DNA of 55,848 nt, counting the filler, from Platydemus manokwari (taxonomy: Eukaryota): assembly GCA_037951405.1 (NCBI GenBank). It is 5 parts of 5 records of this genome, joined end to end, with 100 filler letters (N's around TTAATTAATTAA, not from the genome) between each part and the next. Parts side by side here need not be neighbours in the genome. Positions count along the whole stretch, not along the records: positions 26,243 to 35,084 come from JBBMOY011340649.1; 4 more parts are not named here. The stretch is one strand, 5' to 3'. Shown here piece after piece: positions 1,282 to 50,200 of the stretch. Both the position numbers and the translations under genes were made by a program. Each line of letters begins with the position of its first letter. Position 1 is the first letter of the stretch. Under the pieces are notes generated by a model. That model had not been told where the DNA came from. It made no database searches and saw nothing but the letters and a program-made list of their open reading frames with translations.

Positions 1282-4200
1282 TTAGGTGGTTTCATTTTCC
1301 ATTTTGAAATCGATGAAGTCCTCGTAGAACTTGCTATTGCATGGCTGGAAATATAATGGTACGGTGATGTTGGCGGCTTGCTTTTTTTGTTTTTCGTTGA
1401 GAAATGCTTTGAAATGGTTGGTATTGATTTTCACTTGAATGTCAGAATTGACAGTTTCGCGTACCATCGAACAAACATCCATCGACACCAACAGTTCCAG
1501 CAGATCGACAAACTCTTCCGAGCTGTTATTGGAATCGGAAACTGATGACATCGGGATATAAATGTTGGCACACGGTTCGCAGCAAGTGTTCATTCGGGGA
1601 AAGAAAACCCGCACCATTTTCGGTTTCATTGATTTTTGGTCACACAAGAACCGTTTGTAAATTATTGCTGGTGTTATGGTTTTGTTTTTAATCAATGCAT
1701 GTGACAATCGAGCAGGGATCACTTGAAATGGAACACGCATGTATTTTTCCCTGGAGATATAAAAAAAATTTTGTTAGAAAAAAAATTTTCGAAAAAAAAT
1801 GGTGACGTACCGAATTTTGAATAAATAAAACAAATACGTTTGACACACTTTACCGATGTCGAACAAATACACCCAGGCCATGTCGTCGTATATTTCAATG
1901 ATTTGGGCTCGCAAAAAGTAATCCGGTCGTATCATAGCAACGCAAACGCATCCAATAGCAACGGGTCTTGGAAGCACAGCTGTATTATCGCCGTTACCAT
2001 AATCAATATTCATTTCCTTTTGCATTTCATTGAATGATCGAATGATATCGGGATCGTAGATGCGGAGTTTAATGTGTTGAATGGTCGACATATCGACAAT
2101 GTGAGCGGCTACCAGTCGACCCAATGGGATCATGGGCTACAAACAAAATATAAAACAATATTTTGGATGGGGAATTTAAATTCTCACTTTCAACCATTCG
2201 GGATTACTGACGGTGGTTTGAAGATTATTTTTAGTGATTTGTTCCAGTGTTTTATTGACCCATTTCTCTAATTGATCTTTCACCGATGGATTACAGGTGA
2301 TTTGGAGAACTTGTTTACCGATTTCTTCCGGATGATTATAAATCAATAATTGAGCACCGAATTTTTTCATCAACTCATTTTTGGTTCTGAAAGACAGAAA
2401 CGTAAAAATTGAAATCAATATTTTTTGATGCCAATTGAATTCAATAAAACAAACAAACGAACTCACTTTCCCTTTTTACCAATGATTCTGCCACCCAAAC
2501 CCACGGGAATTGTTCGCACAATTTTAACATCGGCTTGCACACCACCTTCTTCGAGAACCGATTCATCGAAATACACCACATCGAGCTCTTTGTCGCCATA
2601 AGTGATTTTCTCGACATACAATTCCGGATTGCAATCATCGAAAGAAGGAGAACTTAAAATGGGTGTTCGTTCAGAATCCGATGAATGGATATGGACATGA
2701 TTGTCTAATATTGATTCAGCTGATAGAATAGCAACTCGTTCGGTGAGATTATTGACACAGTGGGCATGATCGCTTTCTGATGATGGGTGTGGACTGCAGA
2801 TATTGATCGAAACGTCATCATCATAGAAATCCCGTTTGATATTATTCAATGAATCTTCATCATTGGGCCAATTATTTTCCAATTTATTATTCGATTCCAT
2901 CATATCAGTGCTGGTTTCACATTTGTTACCATTGAGACAATCTTCAATGTATTCCATGAAGTTTCCTCCAGTCACCATTAAGCTTTCCAAAGATGAATCG
3001 TTGATATAATCCGATGTTTGGGAAATATCACTGCTGCTATCCACATCGACGGATTCTTTGATTGAAACCGATTCTAATTGATTTTTAATGACGTCATCAT
3101 TAGATTTATTGATTTCTGCATTATCTATATCGCCATCAATACATTTGATATCAATATTATTATTATCCATATATTCATTAATATCATTGATTAATTCATC
3201 TTGTTTATCGATTATTACATCTTTAGCAACTTGTTCATCAATGGAATCACGTCCTGATGTTTGATCACATTCCACATGATCCGTTTCTATCATATCATCA
3301 ATAACTGATTCCATATGATTTGTTTCATCATTCACACCTGCTTCTTCGGAAACAACTGATTCCTCAGACATTTCAACCTTATATTCCTCCAAATCTACTA
3401 TCATGTCTGATATTTCTTCTACAATCATATCTTCGTCATTCTCCACTACATTAATAGAGATATCAGATTCCATTTCCTTCTGTTCAGCAACAATTCCATC
3501 ATTTGATTCTTCATTGATTAATTGTTTTGACATTTCAGTGTCATTCAAATCATTTCCTCCCATTACATTGTCGATAGATTCCTCCATCTTCTCATCTTGA
3601 TCATTTCCAGATTCCTCCATAGATTCCAATGCCTTAATCTCTTGCTTCTCAATAACTGATTCATCACGTGTATATTCTTCAATAATATTCTCAATCGATT
3701 CTTCTGCTACTTTCTCTCCCCCTTCAATCGAATCAATAATATTTCCTGATTTGCTAATATCTTCGCTGTTTTCAATGAAAGATTCGTCAACTACCTCGAC
3801 CTCTTCCTTTTCATTTTCTATCGAATCGATAATAATTTCTTTATCTTGTTTCTCATCGAGAGATAAAGTGTTTATTTCGTCAATTATATTCTCATTTTCT
3901 TCGACATGCTCCAATGAGCATTCATGTTTGTCAATAAGCGATTGCTCGATTATTTCGCCTCCTTCTATTTCATCTATAAGGATTTCAGATTTGGCTTGAT
4001 CAGCTTCAATCAGATTGTTCATTGATTCGTTTGTTTCTTCTAAAGCAACTTTAATTTCTTCATCCACGAATGATTCGTCGACAATCTCGCCTTCCTCCTT
4101 TTCATTTTGTATCGATTCAATAATATCCTCAGATGTGTTAATATCTACATTGTTTCCAACGAATGATTCGTCCACAATCTCGCCTTCTTCGTTTTCTCTT

Positions 4201-5527
4201 TCCATCGAATCAATATTTCCGTCGTTTCCAACGAATGATTCGTCAACAATCTCGCCTTCTTCCTTTTCTCTTTCCATCAAATTAATATCGCCGTTATTTC
4301 CAACGAATGATTCGTCAAAAATCTCGCCTTCTATTTCATTGATAGACCTTTCAATGATCTCATCAATTTCCATTTTATTATTTATTGATTCTTCTGTTTC
4401 CTCCATGGCAATTTTCATTTCATTTTCATCCAAAGATTCATCTATTATTTCCCCATCTTCCAATTCACAAGAGATATCCCCATTTTTGGTAAGAAAATCT
4501 GAATCTTCTCCTCTACAATCCAAGATGGGATCGTTTTGATTTTCCAAACTTGATTGGCCATTAATGTCTTCATTAATAGAGATTTCTTCTACACCAATTT
4601 CGATTCTATTATTGGATTCATTAAACGTTTCTTCGTGTTGATCCTCATTTATCATTTCTTCATTTGTTAATTCGATATTATTACAATATTCTATTTGTTC
4701 TTCGACATCACCATCTTGAATTGCGATTAAAGATTCACCATTTACCTTGATATCGTCGTTTTCCAAAATATCATTAAATTCCTTATTCTCCGATATACTT
4801 GTTTCTTGTTCCTTGATTGATTCTTCAATTACTTCACTCTCCTTAATATTAACGCATATTGCAATGTCTACATTATCATTGTTGTCATTTTCCATAACTT
4901 TATCACTCGAGACATCTGAATTCAATACATTTTCGATACAATTTGTATTTGCAGAGTTTTCTAATTTCGTGACATCTTCGATTACAATTTCTTTTTCAAG
5001 ATTATTATTTATGAAAGAGTCGTGTGTGTTCGAATTGATATCGATTACCTTAACTTTATTACATAACATATCTTCCATTGACTTGTCAATGCTAGAACTT
5101 GTTATAATGCTATCTTTTACATTAAGGCTTGATGACATGTCATCATTATCTGAGCTATCAGTGCTGTCATAATCCACATTGCTGTAGTTTTTAAACGAAT
5201 TTTGGCGGACGGTATTGAAAACATTTTCGCCTTCAATTATTTCTTCAAACGTTTCAGGTATCGTCACAATTTCCTTATCAGACTCTATTTGATTAACATT
5301 TGTGTCGTTCATTTGAATGTCGTGATTCTCGCATTCTTGATCTATATTATCAAGGCATTTTTCTGAGTCTGTCTTTTTCTAAATAATAAATAAATGTATT
5401 ATGTATCATGCATTATACATAAACTAACAAAGAATTTCGTGTTCTTTTTAATCTTAATCCATAGGAAATAGACGGTTGATGCAAAAATTGCGGCACTGAT
5501 AATAAAATTAAACTTACTTCCAATCAT
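1282..5527 (-). CDS. Membrane-anchored KH + extended Tudor protein (AKAP1/spoonbill- or TDRKH/PAPI-like), 5 coding exons, ~1334 aa
   Basis: Exons 5527-5429, 5378-2467, 2386-2188, 2136-1811 and 1750-1282 are joined by GT-AG introns of 50, 80, 51 and 60 nt, all phase-compatible (total 4005 nt, ends TAA). N-terminus MIGSKFNFIISAAIFASTVYFLWIKIKKNTK is a hydrophobic signal-anchor plus basic flank. A ~930-aa D/E/N/I/S-rich region follows. The KH domain (IPVGLGGRIIGKKG|KTKNELMKKFGAQLLI) has an intact GxxG loop. Extended Tudor: GCVCVAMIRPDYFLRAQIIEIYDDMAWVYLFDIG...FKIR|EKYMRVPFQVIPARL. Confidence 0.85.
3690..4470 (-). repeat. Coding tandem repeats, core unit 72 bp / 24 aa (EKEEGEIVDESFVGNDGNIDSMER-like)
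   Basis: tttccaacgaatgattcg recurs at ~4153, ~4225 and ~4297 (period 72). More diverged EGEI/DES copies lie on both sides. Confidence 0.85.
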
Positions 5528-10936: not shown

Positions 10937-11543
10937 TTATGTGGCAATAATAATCAAATTGAATAACTAAAACAAAATAAAATTATACTTATAATACGTC
11001 AAGTGGAATTATTAAATTTGTATGGAAATAAATTTTATATTTAATTTGATTTATTATTCCTTAACACTGTGCAATTATTTATATAACTTTAATTAAAAAA
11101 ATTAAATTATTTTGTTGATCATTGAATTAATTATCAAATATTTTTGCACGAGTCAAATTAAGAGTAAATATTTAAAGATTACTCGCTATTTCAATGGGGG
11201 GATTTAATATAGAATTAAAATTTTGATAATAGTGCTTAAATAACTAAAAAAAACTTTAGAGTTAATTCTATATAATTAATGAAAATATAAATTTCGAAAT
11301 TTGTACCTTTTAAAGTATAAATGTATTGTTAATATATTTATGTTTTAATGAAATTTTATTTTATTCGCTTTGTTTGACCGAAATGATTTGAAAAATTACA
11401 TTTGAAATGAGTGGTTTAAATAATTATAAAATTTAGGTTTTTTGGCTGAAGTTAAGAAAAAGAGTAAAAATCAAAAAGTTTACCAAGTTGTACAACTTGT
11501 AACTAGATAACGTATGAAGGACTTGAATGGGAATCAAGCCTAA

Positions 11544-26242: not shown

Positions 26243-28694
26243 TCATTCTAATTTGGTTTATCATATTCATTATTGTTGGCTTTGTTCTGCCATTTTTGAT
26301 CATACCTATAAATTATTGAATTCTGAACATAATAACATAGGTAGGCTGGTAGTGTACTCAGACAATGAATCTCATAGTGTACTAGAGGGCGAAAGGATGC
26401 AATGACTTTCAGCCTATACAAAGTATGGAAAGAGAAAAACGACGAAACGGATTCGATAATCTATCAAACTATATCGAAGAAATATAGGTTGATGAACAAG
26501 GAAACTGATATTGAGAAGTAAGTTCACAATACTTGGTAATTGTTGTCCAGCCTGAAAAGACCTGAAAAGAAAATAAAAGAATTTGAAGTAAGAAGAATTG
26601 CAGTGTCTATCTAGATGCTTAAAGTTAATTCCACCTGAAGTCTTCAAATTTGAATTCCAGTCTTTGAATGCTAATTCTTCCAATTATAACGCAATTATCC
26701 TTTTGATTCAAATCTAATTGTTGAGTTGGGGTCCAATCGACTTTATTTCTATAATAATAATTATTATTCTTGGTACCTTTAATCAATGCCTGAGTCTTAT
26801 TAACACTCCGGAATTTGCAATTAACATTATATTATGATTCTGCTTAGCATCGGTAACTAATAATCCACATATGAAGACTGGATGAGCGGCTCTAAACACA
26901 GCGCTAATTAACCCTAATATTCATCATTGTTAATGTTATATTGAATTATTTGATAACCATTAATTATTTACCGATAATTATCTCTTTCGTATTGCAACTA
27001 AAATCTTCGTCTGTTACACGGATTACCCTGTTAATTGCTGAGGCTAGATACGGGACATTTAAAAGACATTTTTGTTGTTATTTTTTGATATTAATTGTTG
27101 AACCTTCTGTTTCCTAACTAATAAATATTTGAAAACTCATATTTGACTTTTGATTTACTAGCGATCACGATTCATCATCATACCACCAAAGTGTGTAAGG
27201 GCAGTCAAATTACAATTGAAATTGATTTAGGATAGACTACTAATTAGCGCAGTTTTTGTAACTGCATCATTATCATTTCAGGCTCAGAGCAACTCAGTTT
27301 CCTCCGTGCTCAATTATTAATTTAAAATCGAATTTTTTTCCAACAGCTTGGTCATCATACCAGTTGTTGAAGCCTCCAGAACCAGCAAAAATATATAAAA
27401 TCATCCGTCAACAAACAATTTGTTTAATATTTTTAGTATATCCTTTTATATATCTTGTTATCAACTTTCCTTTATTTGACCTGCTTAGCAAAATCGGTTG
27501 CTAATTTTGTTATTTTTCTTTGGTCTTCCATATGTGTAATTTTTCTGTTCTTTGTTTTTAATTTAGGTAAAAACTTTGTTACCGATATTATTTTCTTTGT
27601 CGTGAATGATCGTGGCCCATTTATATCACGATGTTTTGTTATTTTAATAAGACTTTCGAACAAAGCCTAAATAAAAATATGTTTGATCTTTTGAAGATAT
27701 TTTATTTTCATGTATTTATTATTATTATTTTGCTAAATATATTAATTGTGTTGTCATCTCAGTGGAACGAAATGCATAATTTTACTCATGTAAATATAGA
27801 TGAATTACCCTCGCGTAAAAAAGTAATCACCTGATCCATGTTTTATTTTATTGGACGAAACTCTGATAGGGGCTAGGCCCTTGTGGGTGTAAATTAAGGT
27901 TGTATATTGTTATTTAAATGTAACTTAGTGTGAAACTCTGTTTGGTTTTTGCAGTCAGGTTATTAACGAGAACTACATCCAGTAGACCCAACATATACAA
28001 AAATTAAGAATTAAGGATAAAAAATAAAATTTCTTTACTAATAAATGTTAAAATAGAGGTTAATATAAATACTTTAATTTAAAATTAGATAATTCCTCAA
28101 ATAAAGCAATGAATAATGAAACCATTTACCAAAAATGATTTAAAAGGATTAATAACGACATAAGGTACAAGCTACATAAGTTTGATAAGTTTGATAACTA
28201 TAAGTTAGATCTACCCTCGATTTAATCACCCAAATATTATATAAAAAATTACAATATTTAATATTCGAGTGGAGCTAGCAGATAATGCATTTTGTTTATT
28301 AAAAGTAAGTGAGTTAATAAATAATACAGTCAAATGATACTCCATTTTGAACAAATGTTACGTTTTGAGGTAACTCTCTTTTCTGGTTTTATTATTCTTT
28401 CTTATTGATTGATCGATTCTACGTCTTATCAGTACTCTAAGTCCGTCTTGATCCTCAGGTAGTATTATGACCTTATGTGTTTGGTGTTTATTCGCCTCGA
28501 CAATCACGACTTATATGGAGATAATCAGATTGGCGTGGAAATTGATTTTTATTTTTGTAATTGCCTCTATTATTGTCTTATTTATGGTATTGATTTTTTG
28601 ATTTTATTGATTCTTACTATCAATCTTACTTAATAATGCACCAGAGTAACTTTAAGAGGTGATGAATGATAATGAATTATATACATTATGAAAT

Positions 28695-29692
28695 TGTGAT
28701 CTCTTAGGCTTACTGGCAGAATTAAAACAAACTCAATGCTTGTATTACAATGATTTATTATGCATTACACTTATACACCAATTACTACTTCTATACAATT
28801 ATGGGCTTATAAATTACTACTTTTACTGTACTGTATACAATTATTAACAATGAACACAATATTCAAATGATTTTACTACTACTTCTATTCACATAAACAA
28901 CGGGATTTATATACAATTCAGGGAAGCAGATGTTGGACAAAACATTTACCCTTCGTGCTATTGGGTCAGTGTCCTTTTCTTCAGAGGTTTTTTCTAGCTC
29001 GGCTCGATAGATAGGAAGAATATGCGTTATATATAATTGAATATATGATTTTAAATGTATTATCTTACTGTTTGTTCTTCCAGTAGAAAATACTGGCAAT
29101 ATCCTAATCCCCGTCCGGCAATGAATCGTCGATGTTACTTTCGGGTTCTTGTAAAAATCTGCTTATCTTGTTCTGATGTTCTCGTCTTGTATATCGTACC
29201 CTTATATTGTACCCTTTATTGTGCGCTTTAATGATTACAGTCACCGCCTTATATAGGCAGCGGTGAGTCATTCACAGATATTACCTGTGAATTTAATTTA
29301 ATGCCGTGCATATATGTTTAATGCACTATGATTTATCGTGGCAGAGAGAAATTCTCTGAAATTAATTCCATTACGGCAGAAAGAATTTCTCTGCGAATTT
29401 AATGGATGGTAATTTATTTTATTTAATGCATGGCTATTTTTTATTTCAGCTGGATATTTTATTCGCAATGCGCGATAATTTATTGCGCTGGATTATTTCA
29501 TAGATAAATTCACTACGTGTTTTGTTTTAATCAGTGAATTTATTATATGGTAATTTTAATATATTTAATTTTATTATATCAGTACCGGGTTTTTTATTAA
29601 TTATAGGGATTATAAATTAGGGTTTAAATTATATATTATATTATATTATAATATATTATATATTAATATATATAATATTCCCTTCAGTCACA
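28695..29692 (-). repeat. Putative 3' LTR (~1 kb)
   Basis: Termini TGTGA...TCACA. TATATAAG box at ~29250 preceded by TGACTCA, AATAAA near the 3' end (~28755), weak purine-rich tract (CAGGAGAA) just upstream. It lies ~550 bp downstream of integrase. No second LTR is available to confirm. Confidence 0.6.
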
Positions 29693-30251
29693 AAATTCTC
29701 CTGAATTTTCATAAAAATGTTTTTCATGCAATAATAAAAATTATACATTAATGCATGCAATTAACGTTAAAAAAATTGTCATAAGCCCCAAAACCCAACA
29801 AGTGGTTCAGTTGTAACTTTATTTTTAATTTCTCTCTTTCATACGTGAATTGTCAGAAGAGAGTTCGGCCATCCGAAATCATAATTAGGATTAATCCAAA
29901 ATGCGGTTTTACACGAGTATCGTCTATCCTATGTCAGATCATTAATAATTAATTTTTCATTAAATTCGTCTAATAGAAATACTTTGATGTATGAGCCAAT
30001 TTCGGATAGTTATTAGATCGTGAGTTTTATATATCCAAATAAAATGAGTGTATGAGGAATAAATTTTTAATCATTCAATTAATTCGATTTCTAATATTGA
30101 TGAAATCAGTGTAGCTATTGCGTGATCAATATTAAATAAAATTATAAAACATGAAAAGTAATAAGCTGCAAAACGTTCTTGAAGTGCCTACTCGTGTCGT
30201 TACATTACCTGTCGTTCGTGACTTACCTCGCAAAGGGTCATTGATGGTCGT

Positions 30252-30960
30252 CTACTTCAGACATTTTTGACATCGATTAACGTGAACGACAATAGTTTCG
30301 GCATTTTTCGGTTTAAATTGTTTTATTTTCAAGTTCGTTGGGGTTGCATCACAAACAGTGTATGGGCCTTTATGTGGCCTGTTTGATTTCTGAAATATTC
30401 TGCAGATATTTTCTGGTCGAACTAGATAAACTAAGTCCTCTGTTTTGATTTTATGTTCATGTGCTTTCTGATCATAAGCGCCTTTATATTGGTCCTGTTC
30501 ATATATTTTAACCAGCTTTCGGCCAAACAAATTATAATCTTTCTTGTAATAGCGATTTATAATCCGCTGTTTCCATATACTGCGTTATAGGTTCCTGATA
30601 ATTTAAATCTATAGCGACTATTTCTGCATTTTGATTTTTAATTGCGAAGGCTTCCGGCCATTTTGTCAAGTAATAGCAAAATACAAGAATATATTTATTG
30701 CCGTTATTCCGGAAATGCTCCAACTATGTCCATCGTTGTTATTTCCATGGGTGTAGAAGGTGCTGGCATGGGTATCAATGATACTTTAATTTGTGCTCTA
30801 GTATTCCGTCTGGTTATGCATATTTTGCAAGATTTACACCAGATTCTGACATCCGGTCCAATTGCAATCCAATAATATTTTGATTTTAAACTAAATAATG
30901 TCTTTTTAGAGGATAAATGACCTCCTAATCTATCGTCATGGTACTTCATGAGTAAAATAT
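30252..30960 (-). pseudogene. Gypsy integrase remnant
   Basis: HHCC finger YHDDRLGGHL...YYW...VRIWCKSCKIC; core start MDIVG...GNKYILV...LTKWPEAFAIKNQNAEIVA. The rest of the DDE core is deleted. C-terminal GPYTV and VVHVNR motifs are present. Confidence 0.9.
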
Positions 30961-31279
30961 GTTTATGTTTTTCACGTACTACTAATAATATATCCTTACC
31001 GGCATAATATTTTAATAAATCTTTATGTATAAAATATCTGGGTTGTATTAATTGTTTTGGGTCTACATTGCAAACTCGTTTTTACAATGACGTTTAAATT
31101 CATTTAAATTCAGTATGATTTTTCTTGATCCTCCTTAAATTTATCCATGCTTGAGACATCTCTCGCTCTCATTAAAATAGAAAAAAAAGGTTTTTCTATC
31201 ATCAGTTTCATCGTCCCTAATTCTTCATAGTGTACATGTGTTGGCATTCGATTTTTCAGATCTATACCTAATTTGATTC

Positions 31280-32360
31280 ATAAGCCATTCTAGGGGATTA
31301 TGATCTGTATATAATATTATTTTATGTTCTAATAAATATTGTCGAAAGTTTTACTGCAAAATTGATTGCTGATGCTTCTTTTTCTATAGTTGAATCATTT
31401 TTTCATGTTTTTTCGAGGCTCTACTAGCTTATGCAATAACGTGATCCTTTTCGCCATCATCTTGCTGTCCCAATTCAGGGCCAATAGCAAACCCACTTGC
31501 ATCTGTCATTACAATAAAAGATTTCTTCATATCTGGGTTTTAATAATTGAAATGCTTTCATTATTATTAAGCAGTGTGTTAATAGGCTGAGCAATATGCG
31601 AGAAATTTTTTATAAATTTCCAATATTAATTAATAAGACCAAGAAAATATTTAACTTCATCAACATTGATTAAGGTTTTAAACCTTCCTTAGAAATAGTA
31701 TCACCAATGTATATGACCTCTGACTTGGCCCATTCGCATTTAGAAGCTCTAAATTTAAATTTTTGTATCTTAATCTTTTAAAAACTTTTTTATATCAATT
31801 AAATTTTCTTTAAAATCTTTAGAAAAATAATAATGTCATTGATATAAACTATAGCATGTGCGACATCCATGAGTATGAAATCCATAGCTCTCTGAAAATT
31901 TGCAGGAACTTCCATTTATCCAGATGGTAATACATTAAACTCAAAAAGTCCATCATCGTCCACGAACACTGTTTTAAATTTATCCTCCTCCTTTATTGCA
32001 AATTGCCAATACCTTTTGTTTAAGTCAATAGTTGAAAATACTTGCGAATTTCCTATTTTATCTTAAATAGTTTGTGGGAGCGGTAATGAATAAGTATCTT
32101 TTCTAGTGACAACGTTTAATTTTTGATAGTCCACACACCATCTGATGCTACCATCTTTCTTTTTTACCAATACCGGGAATACTAGGAATGCCCATGCGGT
32201 AAAACTGGGTTTTATAATTTTATTCTCAAGCATTTGTTGCTTTTGTCTTCTACTTTCTTCCAAGTGCGCGTACGGTGTAGGGTACGGTCTTATTATTATT
32301 GGTGTTTCATTATCTGGTAATAATGGTATTTTATGTTCAACCACGTGAGTGCTACCTACT
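31280..32360 (-). pseudogene. Gypsy reverse transcriptase + RNase H remnant
   Basis: HKIPL...RPYPTPY...PVLVKKKDGSIRWCVDYQKLNVVTRKDTYSLP; FSTIDLNKRYWQ; GLFEFNVLP; VYINDIIIF (YxDD changed to YIND at 31846-31835). RNase H: FIVMTDASGFAIG...STIEKEASAINFAVK...IIYTDHNPL. Confidence 0.92.
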
Positions 32361-32719
32361 TCAAATTCATGTTTAGCTGTTATATCATCATATCGCTTAA
32401 TTAACAATTTTAATTTTAATTTTTGATTTTCATTTATAACTTCACTATCAATTTTTATATCATCATAAGTTTTTGTTGGTATTTTCCTAATAGTCGGTTC
32501 AATATCAAATATAGTTGATAATCCTCCGAGACGTGTATTAGGATTAAGTGTTACCATTCTATTTTCAAAGTTAGATAACCTAACTGGAATCTTTTGATTC
32601 TCTATCAATACAAATTCAAAATAAATTGGCATTTCATATTTTTATATAAATTGTTGGTTTGGTTCAAATAATAAACATCATTTTTCTGTTTCGGATGTGC
32701 TAGCATAATATACGATCTC

Positions 32720-33110
32720 TTAACGTGGTGGTATAATTAACATAGTATCTAAATATTCTTCATTAGATTTATGCATTAATTTCCGAGAAGTGACTTCGAC
32801 AAGATTTCCTATTCGAAAATCTAATACTATGTTTCCACGTCGTTCTAGCATATCCATTCCTAACAGACATTTAAATGGGCAATCGCCTATCACTACCACA
32901 ATGTGTTGTATTATTTTTCCCATCATTTCAATATTTACAATAGTTCCCCTACCGTTTGTGGTGCTGACCTTGATATGGTTTTTATACTCTCTTCTCCTCA
33001 AACTATATTTCCTTCTTCCTTTTGAGTCAGAAAGTCTCTTGATACTATAATGATATTTAATTCTGAGTCAACAATTGCGTCAACCTTCCTGTCATTTAAC
33101 TTAGTGTCAT
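32720..33110 (-). pseudogene. Retroviral-type aspartic protease remnant
   Basis: TKLNDRKVDAIVDSELNIIIVSRDFL (catalytic DSG changed to DSE, 33069-33061) and C-terminal CPFKCLLGMDML. Confidence 0.8.
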
Positions 33111-33489
33111 ATATACATATGAGCTAGGTATCCCTAGTTGATTTCTTCTCTCTACGTCCCAATTTATTCTTTTTTTATTTCTGGAGTTTCCTTTAAGATT
33201 GATTTCATCTCTTTTAATTCAGTTAAAGGGTAAAATGGTCGTGGTGGTTTGAATGTTGATGGTATAAATAATTCATTAAAACGTGATTTATTTTCTTTTT
33301 CTAAATGCTCTAATTTTGATAAGGTTCCCGAATCTTTCCAATTTGGTACCGATATGTCTGAATTTGTGATAATATTGTCATCGTCCCTTGAGTTAGTGTC
33401 ATTATTTTCATCTTTTGGTAGAGTGTCCTCTGAAATCGAAGATGTACTAAATCTTACTTTCCTTTTATTTCTCATTTCAGATTCATTTC

Positions 33490-34660
33490 TTCATGTTGAT
33501 GATTGATTATAAATAAATTAGCTCAGAATGGAATACATCCTAAGATTAATTTCCATGAACCGCCTACCATGCTATAAGTAGATAATATTTGTGCACTAAA
33601 ATGATACATACACTCCTATCAATCCGGCACAGGCTTGTCCGAATAATATGATCTGGGCCTAGCAAGTATTCGTAATTTGCTTGACTGCTTTCTCTTGGTA
33701 AAATAGTATCAACGAATTCTATTATTACGCGTTCTCTCTTTGCTGGGAATAGTAAGTTACGTCTGGCTTCCTCTAAGTCCTCTGGTGAATACATTCCCGT
33801 AGCAGCCAAATTATTTAAAGATGTAAAATTTATTAGGTATTTTAATTTAGTTAGTTCCAATTTTTCAGGTGGTTTAACTATATTTAGTAGCGCAATCCAA
33901 TGGTCGGGCGTTATTCTGTATAACGGTGCTAAAATAGGGTTAAATTCTAAATTTTTGGGTTTCGTTCCTTCTTCCAAGATAATTCGAGTTATCGGTTTTA
34001 TAAAACGTAGTTTCCTTCGACATTGATTAGAAGTTTCATATTTCATTATTTGGATTGATATTTGTAGCTATATAGTGCCTCGCTTTAAACGCTACCAAAT
34101 ATTCCAATTTGGGGCAAACCAGCATAGGTGTTACTGCATTTGAGTTTGTTAAGGCCATCGCCATTCTATTTCGAAGAATTTCTCGGTTTAGTTGACTTTC
34201 GTTTAATTTAACCTCTTGATATATACTAACAACTGTATTTTGGCCAAAATGAAAAGTATAGTCTAATTTAATATTAAAATATTGGGCCAAATTTATATCG
34301 CCATTATTGACTAATTCCTTGGCACTTTCTAATTTTGCTTTCGATATATATAATCCTTTATAGTTGATCTGATACACTAATTTACCATGTTTTGCCACGG
34401 TGTCGTTTCTGATAAAACACATTCCGTCTTTAGTCAAGGTTGACATTAAAACAGTTGGAGTTCGTTTCGTTCTTACTATGATGCCCTTTATCTTTAGGTG
34501 TTCGATCGGAAGGTAAGTTGTTAATAACTTCATTTACTCGTTCACCCTTAACTTCCATTAAATTAGTTTCTTTTAAAAATGCCAAATTGCAATCTTATGA
34601 CATTATATACCAGTACTGACTCACAGGTTTGGCAACTTTTATGTTTTGAGTTACAGAATG
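33490..34660 (-). pseudogene. Envelope glycoprotein remnant, chuvirus G / herpes gB-like class III fusion protein (C-terminal half with TM region)
   Basis: Motifs recognised by eye as chuvirus-G-like: INLAQYFNIKLDY...SIYQEVKLNESQLNREILRNRMAMAL (central helix); FIKPITRII; NPILAPLYRI...W; NLAATGMYSPEDLEEARRNLLFPAKRERVI; then frameshifted membrane segments LFGQACAGLIGVY and YSMVGGSWKLILGCIPF. Confidence 0.8.
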
Positions 34661-35084
34661 AATGAGTTTACATTTGACTGTATTATGGTAAGATAATAAC
34701 CGCTTCGTACCTCAACTTTTCTGAAATCCTTCTTCTGATTCTCTTTACCTTTGTACAAAAATGCTCTTTGAAATTCTTCATTTCAACTCTTGATTTCATC
34801 AAACTGATCTCAAAAAGAAGGTACATTTAAGCCTTCCTTTTTCCATATTTTTCCACAAAACGTGAAAATACTTCTGAAAGTAGAATTAATAGGTAAACAT
34901 TGTTCTATATACAGTATCAACAAATATTTTAACTCACTCAAATTACGAAACATTGATATATTTACCGTAATAATTTCTAAAATTTATAATTTATTATAAT
35001 ATTCATATTATAGATAACTATTTAATAAATCATAACGATGAAAGAACTGGTATATTATCTTCTGATATTCTGAGAAAACTAAAG

Positions 35085-35184
35085 NNNNNNNNNNNNNNNN
35101 NNNNNNNNNNNNNNNNNNNNNNNNNNNNTTAATTAATTAANNNNNNNNNNNNNNNNNNNNNNNNNNNNNNNNNNNNNNNNNNNN
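35085..35184. other. Artificial contig spacer
   Basis: Same pattern. Confidence 0.95.
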
Positions 35185-37046: not shown

Positions 37047-40000
37047 CTAGCAAGGCACGGAAAATGGTGATGGAGTTTTAATAGATAATTTTGAATTGAA
37101 ACTTTTGAAAACCGGATTGTCGCGGTTAGGTTGATAAATGGATTTAAATTCTTTATCTTTACCAATTATTGGAATATAGTTTACTGTCAAATTGGCTCTG
37201 TCATCTGAACCCACAGTATACGATCGATTTTCTATTTCTTTTTTTGTTATTACACCAATAGCAGAAATGGAATTCGGATCACCATATTTTCGTACAATCC
37301 AACTAGCAACTTTTAAATCATCCTTTCGTAATCCTTTTAATTTATCTAGTTGATTCGAACTATTTACTCCTTTTTCTGTCAGTTCTGTTTGCGTTAATAG
37401 CCGGTGGACTTTAAAATTTGGATCTGAGACGCAAAGTTTTTTCTCCCATTTATTCCAGTCTAATTTTAGTTGTTCAGCTTTATTCCGATTCTGAGTAACG
37501 TAGCTTGGCATTATAGAAATTGGACTACGGTCTAATAAATGCAATGGACGAATATAATTATTGAAGTGATGATTTTTTTCATCTCGTTCAGTAAGTGTTG
37601 GCTTCATAAATGAGCTGTTTAATTCATTTTCTTTCCATGGTTCTTTAAGATCTTCGATCCTACTCACGGACAACTTGTTTTTATCGCAACTATCTTCAAT
37701 GGCTGATCTTAATCCTTTGTTAATCCATTTAGGTTCGGATCGAATTTTGTGCTCTTCGGCTAAAAATTCATTTTCCAAATCCACTGGATCCAGAGTACCA
37801 GAAAATAAATAATTCTGAGAAAACGTATATCGTCTTTTAGAGTCCATCTTATTTCTCACTTCTTTCAAAGCAGATAAAATAGCATTTTTATTTTGCGAAC
37901 TATACGAAAACTCACAATCTTTTTCTGGGTATATATACGTACTAGATCTGCGGTGAATTTTGGAACTGATCTGAGAGTTTTTGTTTTCATTATTCTTGGC
38001 ATGACTAAACACCGGAGCTGTTTTAATGAGTTGCCTTTTCAGTTTCCTATCCAAAATTTTAGATTTGGATTCTTTATCGATTATATTGGGGTTATCATAA
38101 TTCATTTGCGAATCGATATGGGAACAGAGATATTGTGATATATCATTTATCATTTGAAAGGTTGGTATGAGATTATTTCGTGACACAACTTGCATGGATT
38201 CGGCTTTTAGCAAATCATTCAATCGGCAAATTCCTTCTACACAAGTTTTCGGTAAAATATCCCTCACATACAACAGAGGTTGTGAAGCGAAAAATGAAAT
38301 GTCTTTCGATAATACCAATGGAATCATGGTTAAAACTGGATAATTATCGCGTTGTTGGATTATTAATGAGTCGTTGTATAGAAATTTTATGGTGTTTTGG
38401 TAATCCATTGACTGCTGGTAATACGTGTTCAGTGCCTCACTGCAATAATCACGAAACTTTTTCATATTGATCTCATTTCCTTCTATCAATAATAGTTCGC
38501 ATTTTCTATCGACTAGAAAAAATCCAATTAATACTTCATCGGTGACAGCCGATACATCTTTGATACTATAAAGAAATTGTTTCATTTCACTGCGTTCAGT
38601 ACTGTGAAAATTGAGTTGTTGACAATTGTGTTTCAAGATGAATTTAGTGCAAGTGTTTCTGATAAAATCGCAATTGACATTGTTATTGATGATAACTGAC
38701 CGGTTGAAATGATTGCCGCCATCAGACGATGAGTTCAATTTGAATGAAACTGATTCTGATAGTTGAAATGAAATTTTTATCGACGTTTCCGATTCTATGA
38801 AATCGATGTGGTCTTCATTATTATGTTTCGTACGATTCTCATTGTCCTCTTTCAAGGCAATTACTGATACTGGTACTATGGGAACAGTCATTTCTAGGAA
38901 TTTTAGATTATTGTGAATTATATCAGATAAATCGAATTTAGCTTCGCCTTGCGGTTTTACTGGGCTAAGGTTTGTCACTGTTTTGAAGTGGCTTGTAAGA
39001 TTAATATCTCCTATATCTCTATCGTTTTTCGTATCTGTTAGAACATCGTTACCAAAATCATTTGGTTCTTGTTTTATCCTATTAAATAATTTTACAGTGA
39101 AAAATGAGTTCAGTAATTGCTCTTTGATTTTTATTTCCGATAATTCACCCAACAAAACGATGCTGACGTCATCAAAAATGACTGATTTTCTATGAATGTG
39201 ATCAGTTGTTTTATATGGAGGGAGGTCTGCGAATCGATATTGACAATAAATCGGTTTGTATTTTTTATTGATTTCTTCGATTTTATCATCATCGATTGAA
39301 AGATTATTGATTCTTTTAATTTTGATCACTAAAGGATTCAAACGTTTCTTCTGACTTGGTGACAGAATATCCGGTTCAATGGAAACACGACAAAACATAT
39401 CTTCCAAGCTGTTGATTGAATTAGGAATTCGGTTTATCGATTGATTTTTGAGAAACAAATCTGGCATATTAATTCCGAAATTAATGCGACCGTGTTTATG
39501 ATAATCATCATTGTCAAAATGTAATGTAACACTTTTTCGTGATTCGAATATGGTATTACTGTCTATTGGTTGAAGTAAAGGACTATTTAATGATTCTTTT
39601 GCATTGGAAATTGCAGATTTTATTTTCGAAGAATGATTCGAATATGATCGTTTGTGCTTTTCAGAAATGGCATTAGAATTCGATTCTAAAAGCTTTTCCA
39701 ATTGACTAAATGATTCCAGCTTGGGATTTACATTCATTTTCGGTTCTACACATAGTAGCAATTGATCAGATTCTTTCACTTTCGAATTTGGGGAACTGGC
39801 ACTGGATTTGGCTGTCGAAATTGTTTTGGCAGATTTATTTATTCGACTAGTTTTGTCGGGATATCTCTTCAAAGGTTCTGTTAAGACGATTTGATGGGGT
39901 AATATTCTGTCTGAATTCTCATTGTTTGATATTGAATAATTCTTTGATATCGTTAATACGGTGTGTTTGATCCAACTGCTGTTTTCATTAGTCGATTTTG

Positions 40001-40586
40001 ATCTGGTCGCTGATCGAGGAGCTTTAGGTCGATCAAATCTCACTTTTGAGGTGCATTTATCTTTTGTATCCCATACTGTTATTTTCATTTTATGCGTACA
40101 AAGATCTTTAATATGCTTATCTGTGATCCAAAATCTAAAATGCTGAATCCAACTAATCCAAGTATCCTCACCATCGGTCCATGTCGGAATAACTTTAGAT
40201 TCAGATTTATCGGGATAGACTTTTGCAAATGTTCCATGAAATCCAACATCTGTCTTGAAACTATCATGAAATATTTTTGAAGAGAACAAGTCAAATTCTA
40301 AATGAAAATATTGTTGACAATTTCGGGACGAAGACTCGGCAGCACTAGAACGTTTTGGAAGTGATTCTTGAGATTTATTCAGTGTGAAAACTCCTGGGAT
40401 TGCCATTGCAAACGTCACATCAAATGAGACTTCATGACCGCTTTCATCAGCAAACTGAGAAGAGCTTTGAATGGTTTTCATATTAAATATCGAATTGTTC
40501 ATTCCTGAAACACCATCGACATCTGCAACAGATTGATTCTCGTTCAGATTTTGCTCGTTATTTGTTTGAAAACTGACAAAATTCAT
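37047..40586 (-). CDS. CFAP92: Cilia- and flagella-associated protein 92-like (KIAA1257, DUF4550), 1179 aa, single exon
   Basis: N-terminal block FDVTFAMAIP...YFHLEFDLF...KTDVGFHGTFAKVY...VIPTWTDGEDTWISW...HKMKITVWDTKDKCTSKVRFDRPKA matches DUF4550. A second C2-like block reads LNPLVIKI...PIYCQYRF. The frame is uninterrupted for 3540 nt. Confidence 0.82.
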   Translation of the reverse strand: MNFVSFQTNNEQNLNENQSVADVDGVSGMNNSIFNMKTIQSSSQFADESGHEVSFDVTFAMAIPGVFTLNKSQESLPKRSSAAESSSRNCQQYFHLEFDLFSSKIFHDSFKTDVGFHGTFAKVYPDKSESKVIPTWTDGEDTWISWIQHFRFWITDKHIKDLCTHKMKITVWDTKDKCTSKVRFDRPKAPRSATRSKSTNENSSWIKHTVLTISKNYSISNNENSDRILPHQIVLTEPLKRYPDKTSRINKSAKTISTAKSSASSPNSKVKESDQLLLCVEPKMNVNPKLESFSQLEKLLESNSNAISEKHKRSYSNHSSKIKSAISNAKESLNSPLLQPIDSNTIFESRKSVTLHFDNDDYHKHGRINFGINMPDLFLKNQSINRIPNSINSLEDMFCRVSIEPDILSPSQKKRLNPLVIKIKRINNLSIDDDKIEEINKKYKPIYCQYRFADLPPYKTTDHIHRKSVIFDDVSIVLLGELSEIKIKEQLLNSFFTVKLFNRIKQEPNDFGNDVLTDTKNDRDIGDINLTSHFKTVTNLSPVKPQGEAKFDLSDIIHNNLKFLEMTVPIVPVSVIALKEDNENRTKHNNEDHIDFIESETSIKISFQLSESVSFKLNSSSDGGNHFNRSVIINNNVNCDFIRNTCTKFILKHNCQQLNFHSTERSEMKQFLYSIKDVSAVTDEVLIGFFLVDRKCELLLIEGNEINMKKFRDYCSEALNTYYQQSMDYQNTIKFLYNDSLIIQQRDNYPVLTMIPLVLSKDISFFASQPLLYVRDILPKTCVEGICRLNDLLKAESMQVVSRNNLIPTFQMINDISQYLCSHIDSQMNYDNPNIIDKESKSKILDRKLKRQLIKTAPVFSHAKNNENKNSQISSKIHRRSSTYIYPEKDCEFSYSSQNKNAILSALKEVRNKMDSKRRYTFSQNYLFSGTLDPVDLENEFLAEEHKIRSEPKWINKGLRSAIEDSCDKNKLSVSRIEDLKEPWKENELNSSFMKPTLTERDEKNHHFNNYIRPLHLLDRSPISIMPSYVTQNRNKAEQLKLDWNKWEKKLCVSDPNFKVHRLLTQTELTEKGVNSSNQLDKLKGLRKDDLKVASWIVRKYGDPNSISAIGVITKKEIENRSYTVGSDDRANLTVNYIPIIGKDKEFKSIYQPNRDNPVFKSFNSKLSIKTPSPFSVPC

Positions 40587-40651
40587 ATTTATTTTTCTGA
40601 GAGTACGATTTTGTTGAAATCAAAATTTTGCTCTGATAATTGATATGTACG

Positions 40652-48789: not shown

Positions 48790-50200
48790 TTTCAAATCCT
48801 TGTCTGAATCTGCTCTAGGCTCAGACGGATTGGCCATATAGCAACTGGCATGAAGTTGACACCAACTTTTGTATTTTCCTTTCTGTTTTTAACTATATAT
48901 ATGTAAGTAGAGTTATTCCCGACTAATTTTTTGAGAGAAAATTTCTATCAAAACAAAATCCAAAAAGCAAAAAACAAAGACCTATGCGAGACTGTGCAAT
49001 ATTCTTTTAGATTTTCAGGTTATCATTGTTTCTCAAGTTCATCTTTCACATGTCTTTCAGATTTTTCTCCATTCACGCTTTCCTTTTCATCTTCGTATTC
49101 GTGACGTGAGTACACAACAACTTAACTCATCTCATGGAATATAACCTCTTGGATTCTTACCTGTGTAAGCTTTGATGGGAAAAAGCGTGAACTAGTCAGG
49201 AGTATTATAAGTAAATACCATGTATAAAACCTGAATAACAACTTTTCTATGCTCCTTGTAAACTCGGAGATCTTGAATTATGCCTCCTCACTGTGTGTTT
49301 TTGTACAGACAATTACCGGTACTATCAGATTTTCAGATATCTTATGATTTCTCACTTGATCGATGTAACCGATGCTCGTTTTATTCCAAGAAGATCTTAA
49401 AATCTTGAACAACCTTTTGAATGGCTGTCACATAAAATTCCTTCTGTTTATAGACAAAAGACAACCTGGTAGTCAAAGGTCAGACATCGTAGCTTTGGAA
49501 ATGATTGTTTCACACTAAGAATTCTTCTATTTTTCTTTGTCTTTAACTTTTATCCAAATGTCATAAAGTTCTAAAAGGTCTTCATGTCTTCACCATCAAC
49601 TTTGGAAATTTATTGTTAGAGCTAGGAATAATCTTCTGTTATTAAACTTTCATCTATAAAGTGCTCAAAGACATTTGTCAATTATTTGTCAAAGATGTAA
49701 TGCCTCTCATGAATCTTCTGCACATGTTCTTATTCACCGTCATGCAACACTACAACTTACTTCTGCTCATAATAATGCTGTCTTGAATACTCTATGTTCC
49801 TCTCGTCGCTCTCGTGGGCTTGGTGTTGACCTTGGCGTAACAACTGTAGAGATACCCTCAACTTTGCGCCATGAGACTGTTGTCAGAGACTTTCAGAAAA
49901 ACCTTACTGTTATCTTAGACTTGAAAATCTCTTATGACTTGGTAGAAATTTTTCAAACAAATCGTTTCAATAATCGAGATAAGTATACACAACACGCTGT
50001 CGATATCTGCCGGCGAAATAGACACGAGTCTACCTTTAGTGTTATTGGTTCTTGGGACCCAAAAAACTTTCAATATTTAGCCTTCGATAAAAAGACTGTA
50101 AATAAACTTTCAAATTTTTACTAACACAAGTGATCCGGTCTGCCTGCAATATCTACTTGAGTTACATACGTAGTGATAACACAACAAAACTTATAAAAAC
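48790..50200 (+). mobile_element. Decayed non-LTR retrotransposon with restriction-like endonuclease (R2/NeSL/Utopia-type)
   Basis: LWKFIVRARNNLL, zinc knuckle CQRCNASHESSAHVL, (R)HN-like AHNNAVL, RLE motifs LRHETVV...VILDLKISYD...RDKY...IGSWDPKN. An RT domain-0-like GSDGL remnant lies at ~48820. Confidence 0.75.

Follow-up and report, generated by a model that had tools for sequence, protein, structure and literature searches.

The locus described here raises the question of whether a class III (gB/chuvirus-type) envelope remnant lying directly ahead of a Ty3/gypsy pol belongs to that pol or came to lie beside it by accident, and, if it belongs, whether envelope and enzymes were once made as one chain. 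It is found in a 55,848-nt stretch of Platydemus manokwari DNA (GenBank assembly GCA_037951405.1), hereafter the window, which joins five parts of different records; the N runs around an identical 12-base spacer at 11543, 26142, 35085 and 45701 are the joining filler and an artefact. Our reading, with a probability of about 0.9, is that this is a dead Ty3/gypsy copy with a gB/chuvirus-type env ahead of a protease, a reverse transcriptase (RT), an RNase H and an integrase, whose intact relatives are encoded in one frame and likely yield a single membrane-threaded polyprotein. The domain order, the decay, the one-frame env-pol arrangement of relatives (gag-env-pol in some), the class III fold of a relative and the shared RT lineage are directly supported.

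All recognisable parts are on the minus strand, in the order env, linker, protease, RT, RNase H and integrase (Pfam matches and alignments to the relatives P0005 and P0011), and the span from env to integrase is compact (~4.4 kb) within AT-rich surroundings (about 21–37% GC per kb). A gypsy-type pol is indicated by Pfam matches to RVT_1, RT_RNaseH and Integrase_H2C2 and by the Ty3 RT as best match. The protease remnant (about 32840–33135) is of the retroviral aspartic type and is split over two frames (PF13975, E 0.004; linker plus protease profile), the RT remnant (31673–32380; RVT_1, E 7e-15) contains stops, and the catalytic motifs of both are changed. An RNase H remnant follows at 31192–31536 (RT_RNaseH, E 9e-18), and then an integrase remnant at 30252–31081 that retains the zinc finger and the C-terminal part (PF17921, E 1e-13; PF18697, E 0.004; P0011 alignment). 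Among 90 solved sequences, the window RT matched the Ty3 RT best (E 1.7e-34; next family 4e-20).

The copy is heavily damaged. P0011 (2,627 aa) aligned to the window in 13 pieces, in three frames and with 19 stops, part of which arise where the alignment continues beyond a frameshift. Relative to this protein, ~110 residues of the integrase core are missing (the alignment skips from P0011 residue 1955 to 2066 at about 30615), and two shorter losses of ~20 residues each lie ahead of the env anchor and between the RT and the RNase H. Of the eight env cysteines that are conserved within the aligned part, four are lost. No continuous reading frame runs across the window copy, and its stops, frameshifts and deletions mark it as a dead genomic copy. 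Of the words sampled from the element, roughly half occur in one run, and no RNA holder is listed.

The env remnant (33469–34682) comprises the middle and C-terminal part of the protein, spread over several frames and interrupted by stops and deletions. Its two longest open pieces both matched the Pfam family PF24664 (Monjiviricetes_fusion), the piece 34067–33564 above the curated cut-off (E 5e-13) and the piece 34533–34036 below it (E 9e-5). An intact 350-aa metagenome fragment, P0001, aligned in five colinear pieces between 34667 and 33669 at 50–65% identity (tblastn, combined E 4e-79); searched in the Atlas, it gave no usable match. A profile built from 15 relatives extended the alignment to seven pieces in three frames (34682–33446) and included the membrane region at about 33694–33469. 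The anchor itself (33481–33694) lies in two frames, with a main hydrophobic segment and a weaker second one (P0011 917–945 and 954–996; profile positions 560–644). These results bear out the sequence-only reading of a frameshifted, chuvirus-G-like glycoprotein with a transmembrane region.

Its suggestion of a class III fusion-protein fold was followed up on a relative, the natural 748-aa protein P0013 (alignment of 23 sequences; pLDDT 73, pTM 0.46), which is 29–33% identical to the window env pieces. Both kinds of match that the reading had proposed to look for, to chuvirus G and to herpes gB, were obtained: the best viral matches were glycoproteins of chuvirus-like type (that of Tacheng tick virus 4, E 8e-39) and the best solved structures were herpesvirus gB (HSV-1 gB, E 2.6e-13). 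Whole-chain TM-scores were low, at 0.26 against gB and 0.39 against the best-matching chuvirus G, which one would expect when a long and flexible protein is modelled as a monomer. Taken together, the P0013 model and the Pfam hits indicate that the window env is probably class III. That the best structural matches are chuvirus-like would also suit a glycoprotein of a chu-like RNA virus, endogenised after being copied in by a gypsy element and now adjoining it; against this, those matches are only 17–21% identical in sequence, while retroelement polyproteins with pol in frame reach 28–43% to a window piece, and a pattern scan of viral contigs gave 9 matches, 0 confirmed as a relative, and no locus. 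We consider the likelihood of such an origin negligible. The same scan of metagenome contigs gave 52 matches, likewise with none confirmed and no locus.

Upstream of position 34682 the env could not be followed. The first ~200 profile positions were unalignable there (in 34660–35084, 174 of 200 shuffles scored as well), and the N-terminal env profile found nothing above chance beyond the gap (24 of 50 shuffles were as good). Domains I–II are mostly absent from the window. The sequence at 34683–35084 (minus strand) is a candidate for heavily decayed env N-terminal sequence, from the by-eye likeness of one short motif to Schmidtea rows. It is bounded by the filler at 35085–35184, which lies upstream of the alignable env at a distance of ~400 bases, and neither gag nor a 5' LTR was seen on either side of this filler; the gag regions of five relatives gave a single tblastn match in the window, distant from the element (E 0.3). 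The 5' end of the copy is cut by loss, by the end of the part at 35084, or by both. Self-comparison of the window revealed no LTR-like repeat pair in or around the element, and a primer site was likewise not seen. On the 3' side of integrase, at about 28700–30100, short tandem repeats and TATA-like words occur; this region could be a candidate 3' LTR, with no second copy of it in the window.

Elsewhere in the window, a host gene with a single 1190-aa open frame (37047–40619, minus strand; DUF4550, E 2e-22) ends ~2 kb upstream of the same filler, in another joined part, so that adjacency in the genome is not implied. A second host gene (1282–5378, minus strand) has a Tudor domain (E 6e-5), a 971-aa acidic exon with 72-base repeats and, at its end, what we take to be a KH-like motif. 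A 154-aa frame at 49660–50124 (plus strand) contains a Cys-x2-Cys...His knuckle, and the motifs after it may be reminiscent of the restriction-like endonuclease that R2/NeSL-type non-LTR elements encode; no Pfam match to such an endonuclease was found at this place.

Between env and protease lies a hydrophilic linker of 108 aa (33164–33490, stop to stop), with no hydrophobic 19-mer (maximum 0.05) and no Pfam match. The sequence-only reading had the glycoprotein run through a ~100-aa hydrophilic linker straight into the protease with no LTR between: the length, the hydrophilic character and the lack of an LTR all hold, and this interval of the window has no remnant of a primer site either. The uninterrupted reading does not hold, the linker frame differing from both of its neighbours and ending in a stop. 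Near 33235 on the minus strand the linker contains Tyr-Pro followed by Leu, and Tyr-Pro also occurs 76–124 residues past the anchor motif in seven of the eight relatives in which it could be placed. This motif may resemble late domains of the YPxL kind or tyrosine-based sorting signals.

Whether this junction is native was addressed through relatives of the env. When one env piece was used as query in a full HMMER search, 33 relatives were returned (word-index searches had found one, then none), and three further full-length proteins outside this set (P0035, P0154 and P0156) came from cluster look-up and RT search. Nine of the 33 run at least 150 residues past the complete env end; in all nine a protease follows there in frame, and four of them reach the RT, while the remaining 24 stop in or near env. 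The frame from env to protease is unbroken in these nine and in P0035, P0154 and P0156. A CCHC knuckle lies upstream of env, in frame, in 5/33 relatives, and env is in frame between gag and protease in P0010, P0011, P0014, P0028 and P0156, with a Retrotrans_gag match in P0028. P0011 and P0156 run within a single frame from a zinc knuckle through env, protease, RT and RNase H to integrase, and P0005 and P0011 are colinear with the window from env through the end of integrase. The proposed ancestor, a Ty3/Gypsy element with a class III env ahead of pol in one polyprotein, therefore has counterparts that carry all parts in frame, and the opposite arrangement, with env 3' of integrase, was sought among the relatives: in none of the 33 does RT or integrase precede env. 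P0005, P0008, P0012 and P0013, all long relatives, start 116–130 residues before env without a knuckle, and because of these four, some members of the family may encode gag in a frame of its own.

Some further properties of these proteins were recorded. The NCBI entry of P0011 names it a hypothetical protein from a metagenome bin of Flavobacteriaceae; it likely stems from an animal contig that was placed in a bacterial bin. Tandem aspartic-protease domains within one polyprotein occur in P0005, P0008, P0009, P0010, P0028, P0035, P0154 and P0156, with up to seven protease stretches in P0035; some of the multiple protease domains come after integrase, and C2H2 fingers and ankyrin repeats are interspersed.

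The stop at the end of the window linker, just before a protease that starts in another frame, is what one would see if env ancestrally ended there and pol were a separate frame reached by read-through, frameshifting or splicing, with Pol made more rarely than Env. One-to-one output of Gag, Env and Pol is unusual among retroelements, which also counts in favour of separate frames. On the other side stand the unbroken env-protease frame in all nine long relatives plus P0035, P0154 and P0156, the planarian env reported in frame (PMC6431247), and the condition of a copy in 13 pieces with 19 stops; because stops and frame changes run throughout it, one more stop at the linker is to be expected. 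Ancestrally separate frames are therefore very unlikely in our estimate.

A profile of linker plus protease scored 28.7 bits at the protease remnant, a value equalled by none of 200 shuffles. The distance from anchor to protease is ~162 codons in the window and 89–163 in seven of the eight relatives placeable among the 12 examined (329 in the other; P0008 and P0035 belong to one cluster). The linker has no significant match to the linkers of relatives (E 0.14), the copy has suffered several deletions and the gap is 400 bases from the alignable env, all of which would fit a chimera, that is, the env of a pol-env element lying upstream (of gypsy or BEL/Pao type) that a nested insertion, a deletion or a misassembly brought next to a gypsy pol to which it is unrelated. 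Such a chimera is extremely unlikely given that the protease continues env in 9/9 long relatives, that the spacing agrees with theirs, that no LTR or primer-site remnant separates env from protease, and that the window RT falls inside the clade of env-first proteins.

This last point comes from the RT phylogeny that the sequence-only reading had called for, which comprised 43 rows (the window and the 42 of 122 sequences that remained after an 80% cut, P0036 having been dropped as too short) with gypsy-like matches to P0011 as outgroups, named reference lineages being absent from the tree. The window RT grouped with all six env-first proteins at a support of 99/98, on a long branch (1.44), and four of these six had been found through their env, not their RT. 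Because relatives continue from env into protease, the spacing agrees and the RT lies in the env-first clade, we consider that the env and pol of the window belong together and that their junction appears native rather than due to chance. The chimeric, separate-frame and viral readings were rejected on the in-frame env-protease relatives, the spacing, the RT clade and the closer retroelement envs.

How a single chain of this kind could work can be sketched, with hydropathy as the sole guide to membrane topology and cleavage. In relatives, one strong hydrophobic segment flanks the ectodomain on each side. Gag would be synthesised in the cytosol; the hydrophobic segment before env would then act as an internal signal that opens translocation, and host signal peptidase would cut at this first segment, parting Gag from Env. 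The Env ectodomain would fold within the ER lumen, and its C-terminal anchor would bring the chain back to the cytosol, where the hydrophilic linker would form the cytosolic Env tail; the weaker hydrophobic stretch after the anchor would have to remain at the membrane surface. The element's own protease would then release Pol, and Env trimers would permit particle budding and fusion into other cells. Such a layout would be of general importance, since the capsid, the fusogen and the enzymes would all derive from a single chain threaded through the membrane; in the parts of the literature on such elements that were covered, we found no demonstration of particles or cell entry for an env-before-pol layout.

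The chain may not end with integrase. In four of the five complete env-first relatives, integrase is followed by a signal-like hydrophobic segment, then an ectodomain and finally another hydrophobic segment as anchor (P0005 2486–2740, P0011 2257–2557, P0035 4361–4729, P0156 3528–3829), P0154 being without this tail. The tail ectodomains have in common a short Leu-x-Pro-x-Thr motif, which we take to be fibronectin-III-like, and one tail has fn3 clusters as its neighbours in the Atlas (0.91, recognition being low). None of the four tails matched Pfam fn3, the tail fold reached a pLDDT of 38 and left the fibronectin reading unconfirmed, and only two of the six tail pairs are clearly alike. Because of the low Atlas recognition, the lack of a Pfam fn3 match and the pLDDT of 38, the fibronectin reading remains a lead. 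In the window, a T-rich stretch at 30092–30180 (minus strand), hydrophobic in translation (hydropathy 1.8, two frames), is a possible relic of this second membrane protein. Compared with window 28500–30260, the tails of relatives gave no significant similarity (185 of 200 shuffles were as good; 12 of 12 pairwise tests were non-significant, the best at 8/100). The proposal that the polyprotein crosses the ER membrane twice, with a class III fusogen and a post-integrase, fibronectin-like signal-ectodomain-anchor protein, that many members have tandem proteases, and that the window stretch is a relic of the tail, is in our view doubtful as a whole; if true, it would give a retroelement an envelope of two proteins released from the same chain, a fusogen and a partner that binds receptors or serves as a decoy. 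The literature text covered was found to mention neither such an additional membrane protein past integrase nor a fibronectin-like domain in such elements, and the words "polyprotein", "fused" and "fibronectin" are absent from the main text of PMC13524379.

As to known systems, the env-before-pol layout has already been described from planarians, nematodes and bryozoans (PMC6431247; PMC13524379), and the contribution of this locus is accordingly small: it is one more record of the lineage, from a copy too decayed for a functional test, together with the lead on a second membrane protein in relatives. The sequence-only reading had regarded gB-type envelopes mainly as a BEL/Pao trait, a premise now outdated by published gypsy elements with a gB-type env (PMC13524379). 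BEL/Pao elements with a chuvirus-like glycoprotein (Dezordi et al. 2020, as cited in PMC13524379) captured an env of the same type, whereas the pol of the window is Ty3/gypsy and its env is ahead of pol; no BEL/Pao pol features were detected in the window, its RT being nearest to Ty3 and no BEL-type peptidase being matched in Pfam. Insect errantiviruses (gypsy/ZAM type) have an F-type env in a separate frame 3' of integrase, in contrast to the class III env 5' of pol in the window, where no env-like match was seen 3' of integrase. Nematode endogenous retroviruses (ERVs) with a Metavirus pol and an RNA-virus-type glycoprotein before pol were described by Sacco et al. 2022 (J Gen Virol), as cited in PMC13524379. 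These non-canonical ERVs have the same env-before-pol order as the window, in nematode hosts. Their gag-env-pro-pol is reportedly one continuous frame.

In planarians, the Burro/GYPSM1 env lies in frame between gag and pol within one polyprotein and matches mononegavirus fusion glycoproteins, and decaying fragments occur in a third planarian (PMC6431247, Genome Biol Evol 2019). Burro exceeds 30 kb, with an ORF of 4,900–5,100 aa, whereas the window element measures ~4.4 kb from env to integrase and is most like the 2,627-aa P0011. Burro also has long LTRs and accessory MATH, BIR, BCL2 and ankyrin domains; relatives share Bcl-2 (P0013) and ankyrin (P0035) matches with it, while none of these domains was matched by Pfam in the remaining part of the window element, its 5' part being absent. 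The window element is not assigned to Burro.

The closest counterpart is the group of ancient errantiviruses reported by Chary and Hayashi (eLife 2026; PMC13524379), in which the gypsy elements with a gB-type env from Nematoda, Bryozoa and Platyhelminthes have the order GAG-ENV-POL, those of different phyla not forming one clade. Nine flatworm elements are listed there, among them Smed_errantivirus_2 with 215 copies, LTR or primer site being unlisted for eight of the nine rows, and ENV-POL matches are given for two further planarians. By-eye counts gave 26/44 identical residues in one ungapped block between the envs of Smed_errantivirus_2 and the window, and, for Smed_errantivirus_1, 22/44 in the same block and 13/23 in a second one. 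This closeness to Schmidtea elements, whose envs have cysteine bridges of type C1a, and the low GC make a free-living flatworm the likely host. A gypsy pol, a gB/chuvirus-type env and the position of env ahead of pol, directly upstream in the window as in 9/9 long relatives, are common to both; the listed elements are intact and mostly multi-copy, whereas the window copy is decayed and has no visible gag or LTRs. Intact frames and several copies are a rule for inclusion in that paper and not a trait of the lineage. Because of its 13 pieces in three frames, its 19 stops and its deletions, we class the window copy as a decayed member of the lineage and not among the intact elements, and, from sequence comparison, we regard it as a new but decayed addition to the GAG-ENV-POL group of gB-type Ty3/gypsy elements already published.
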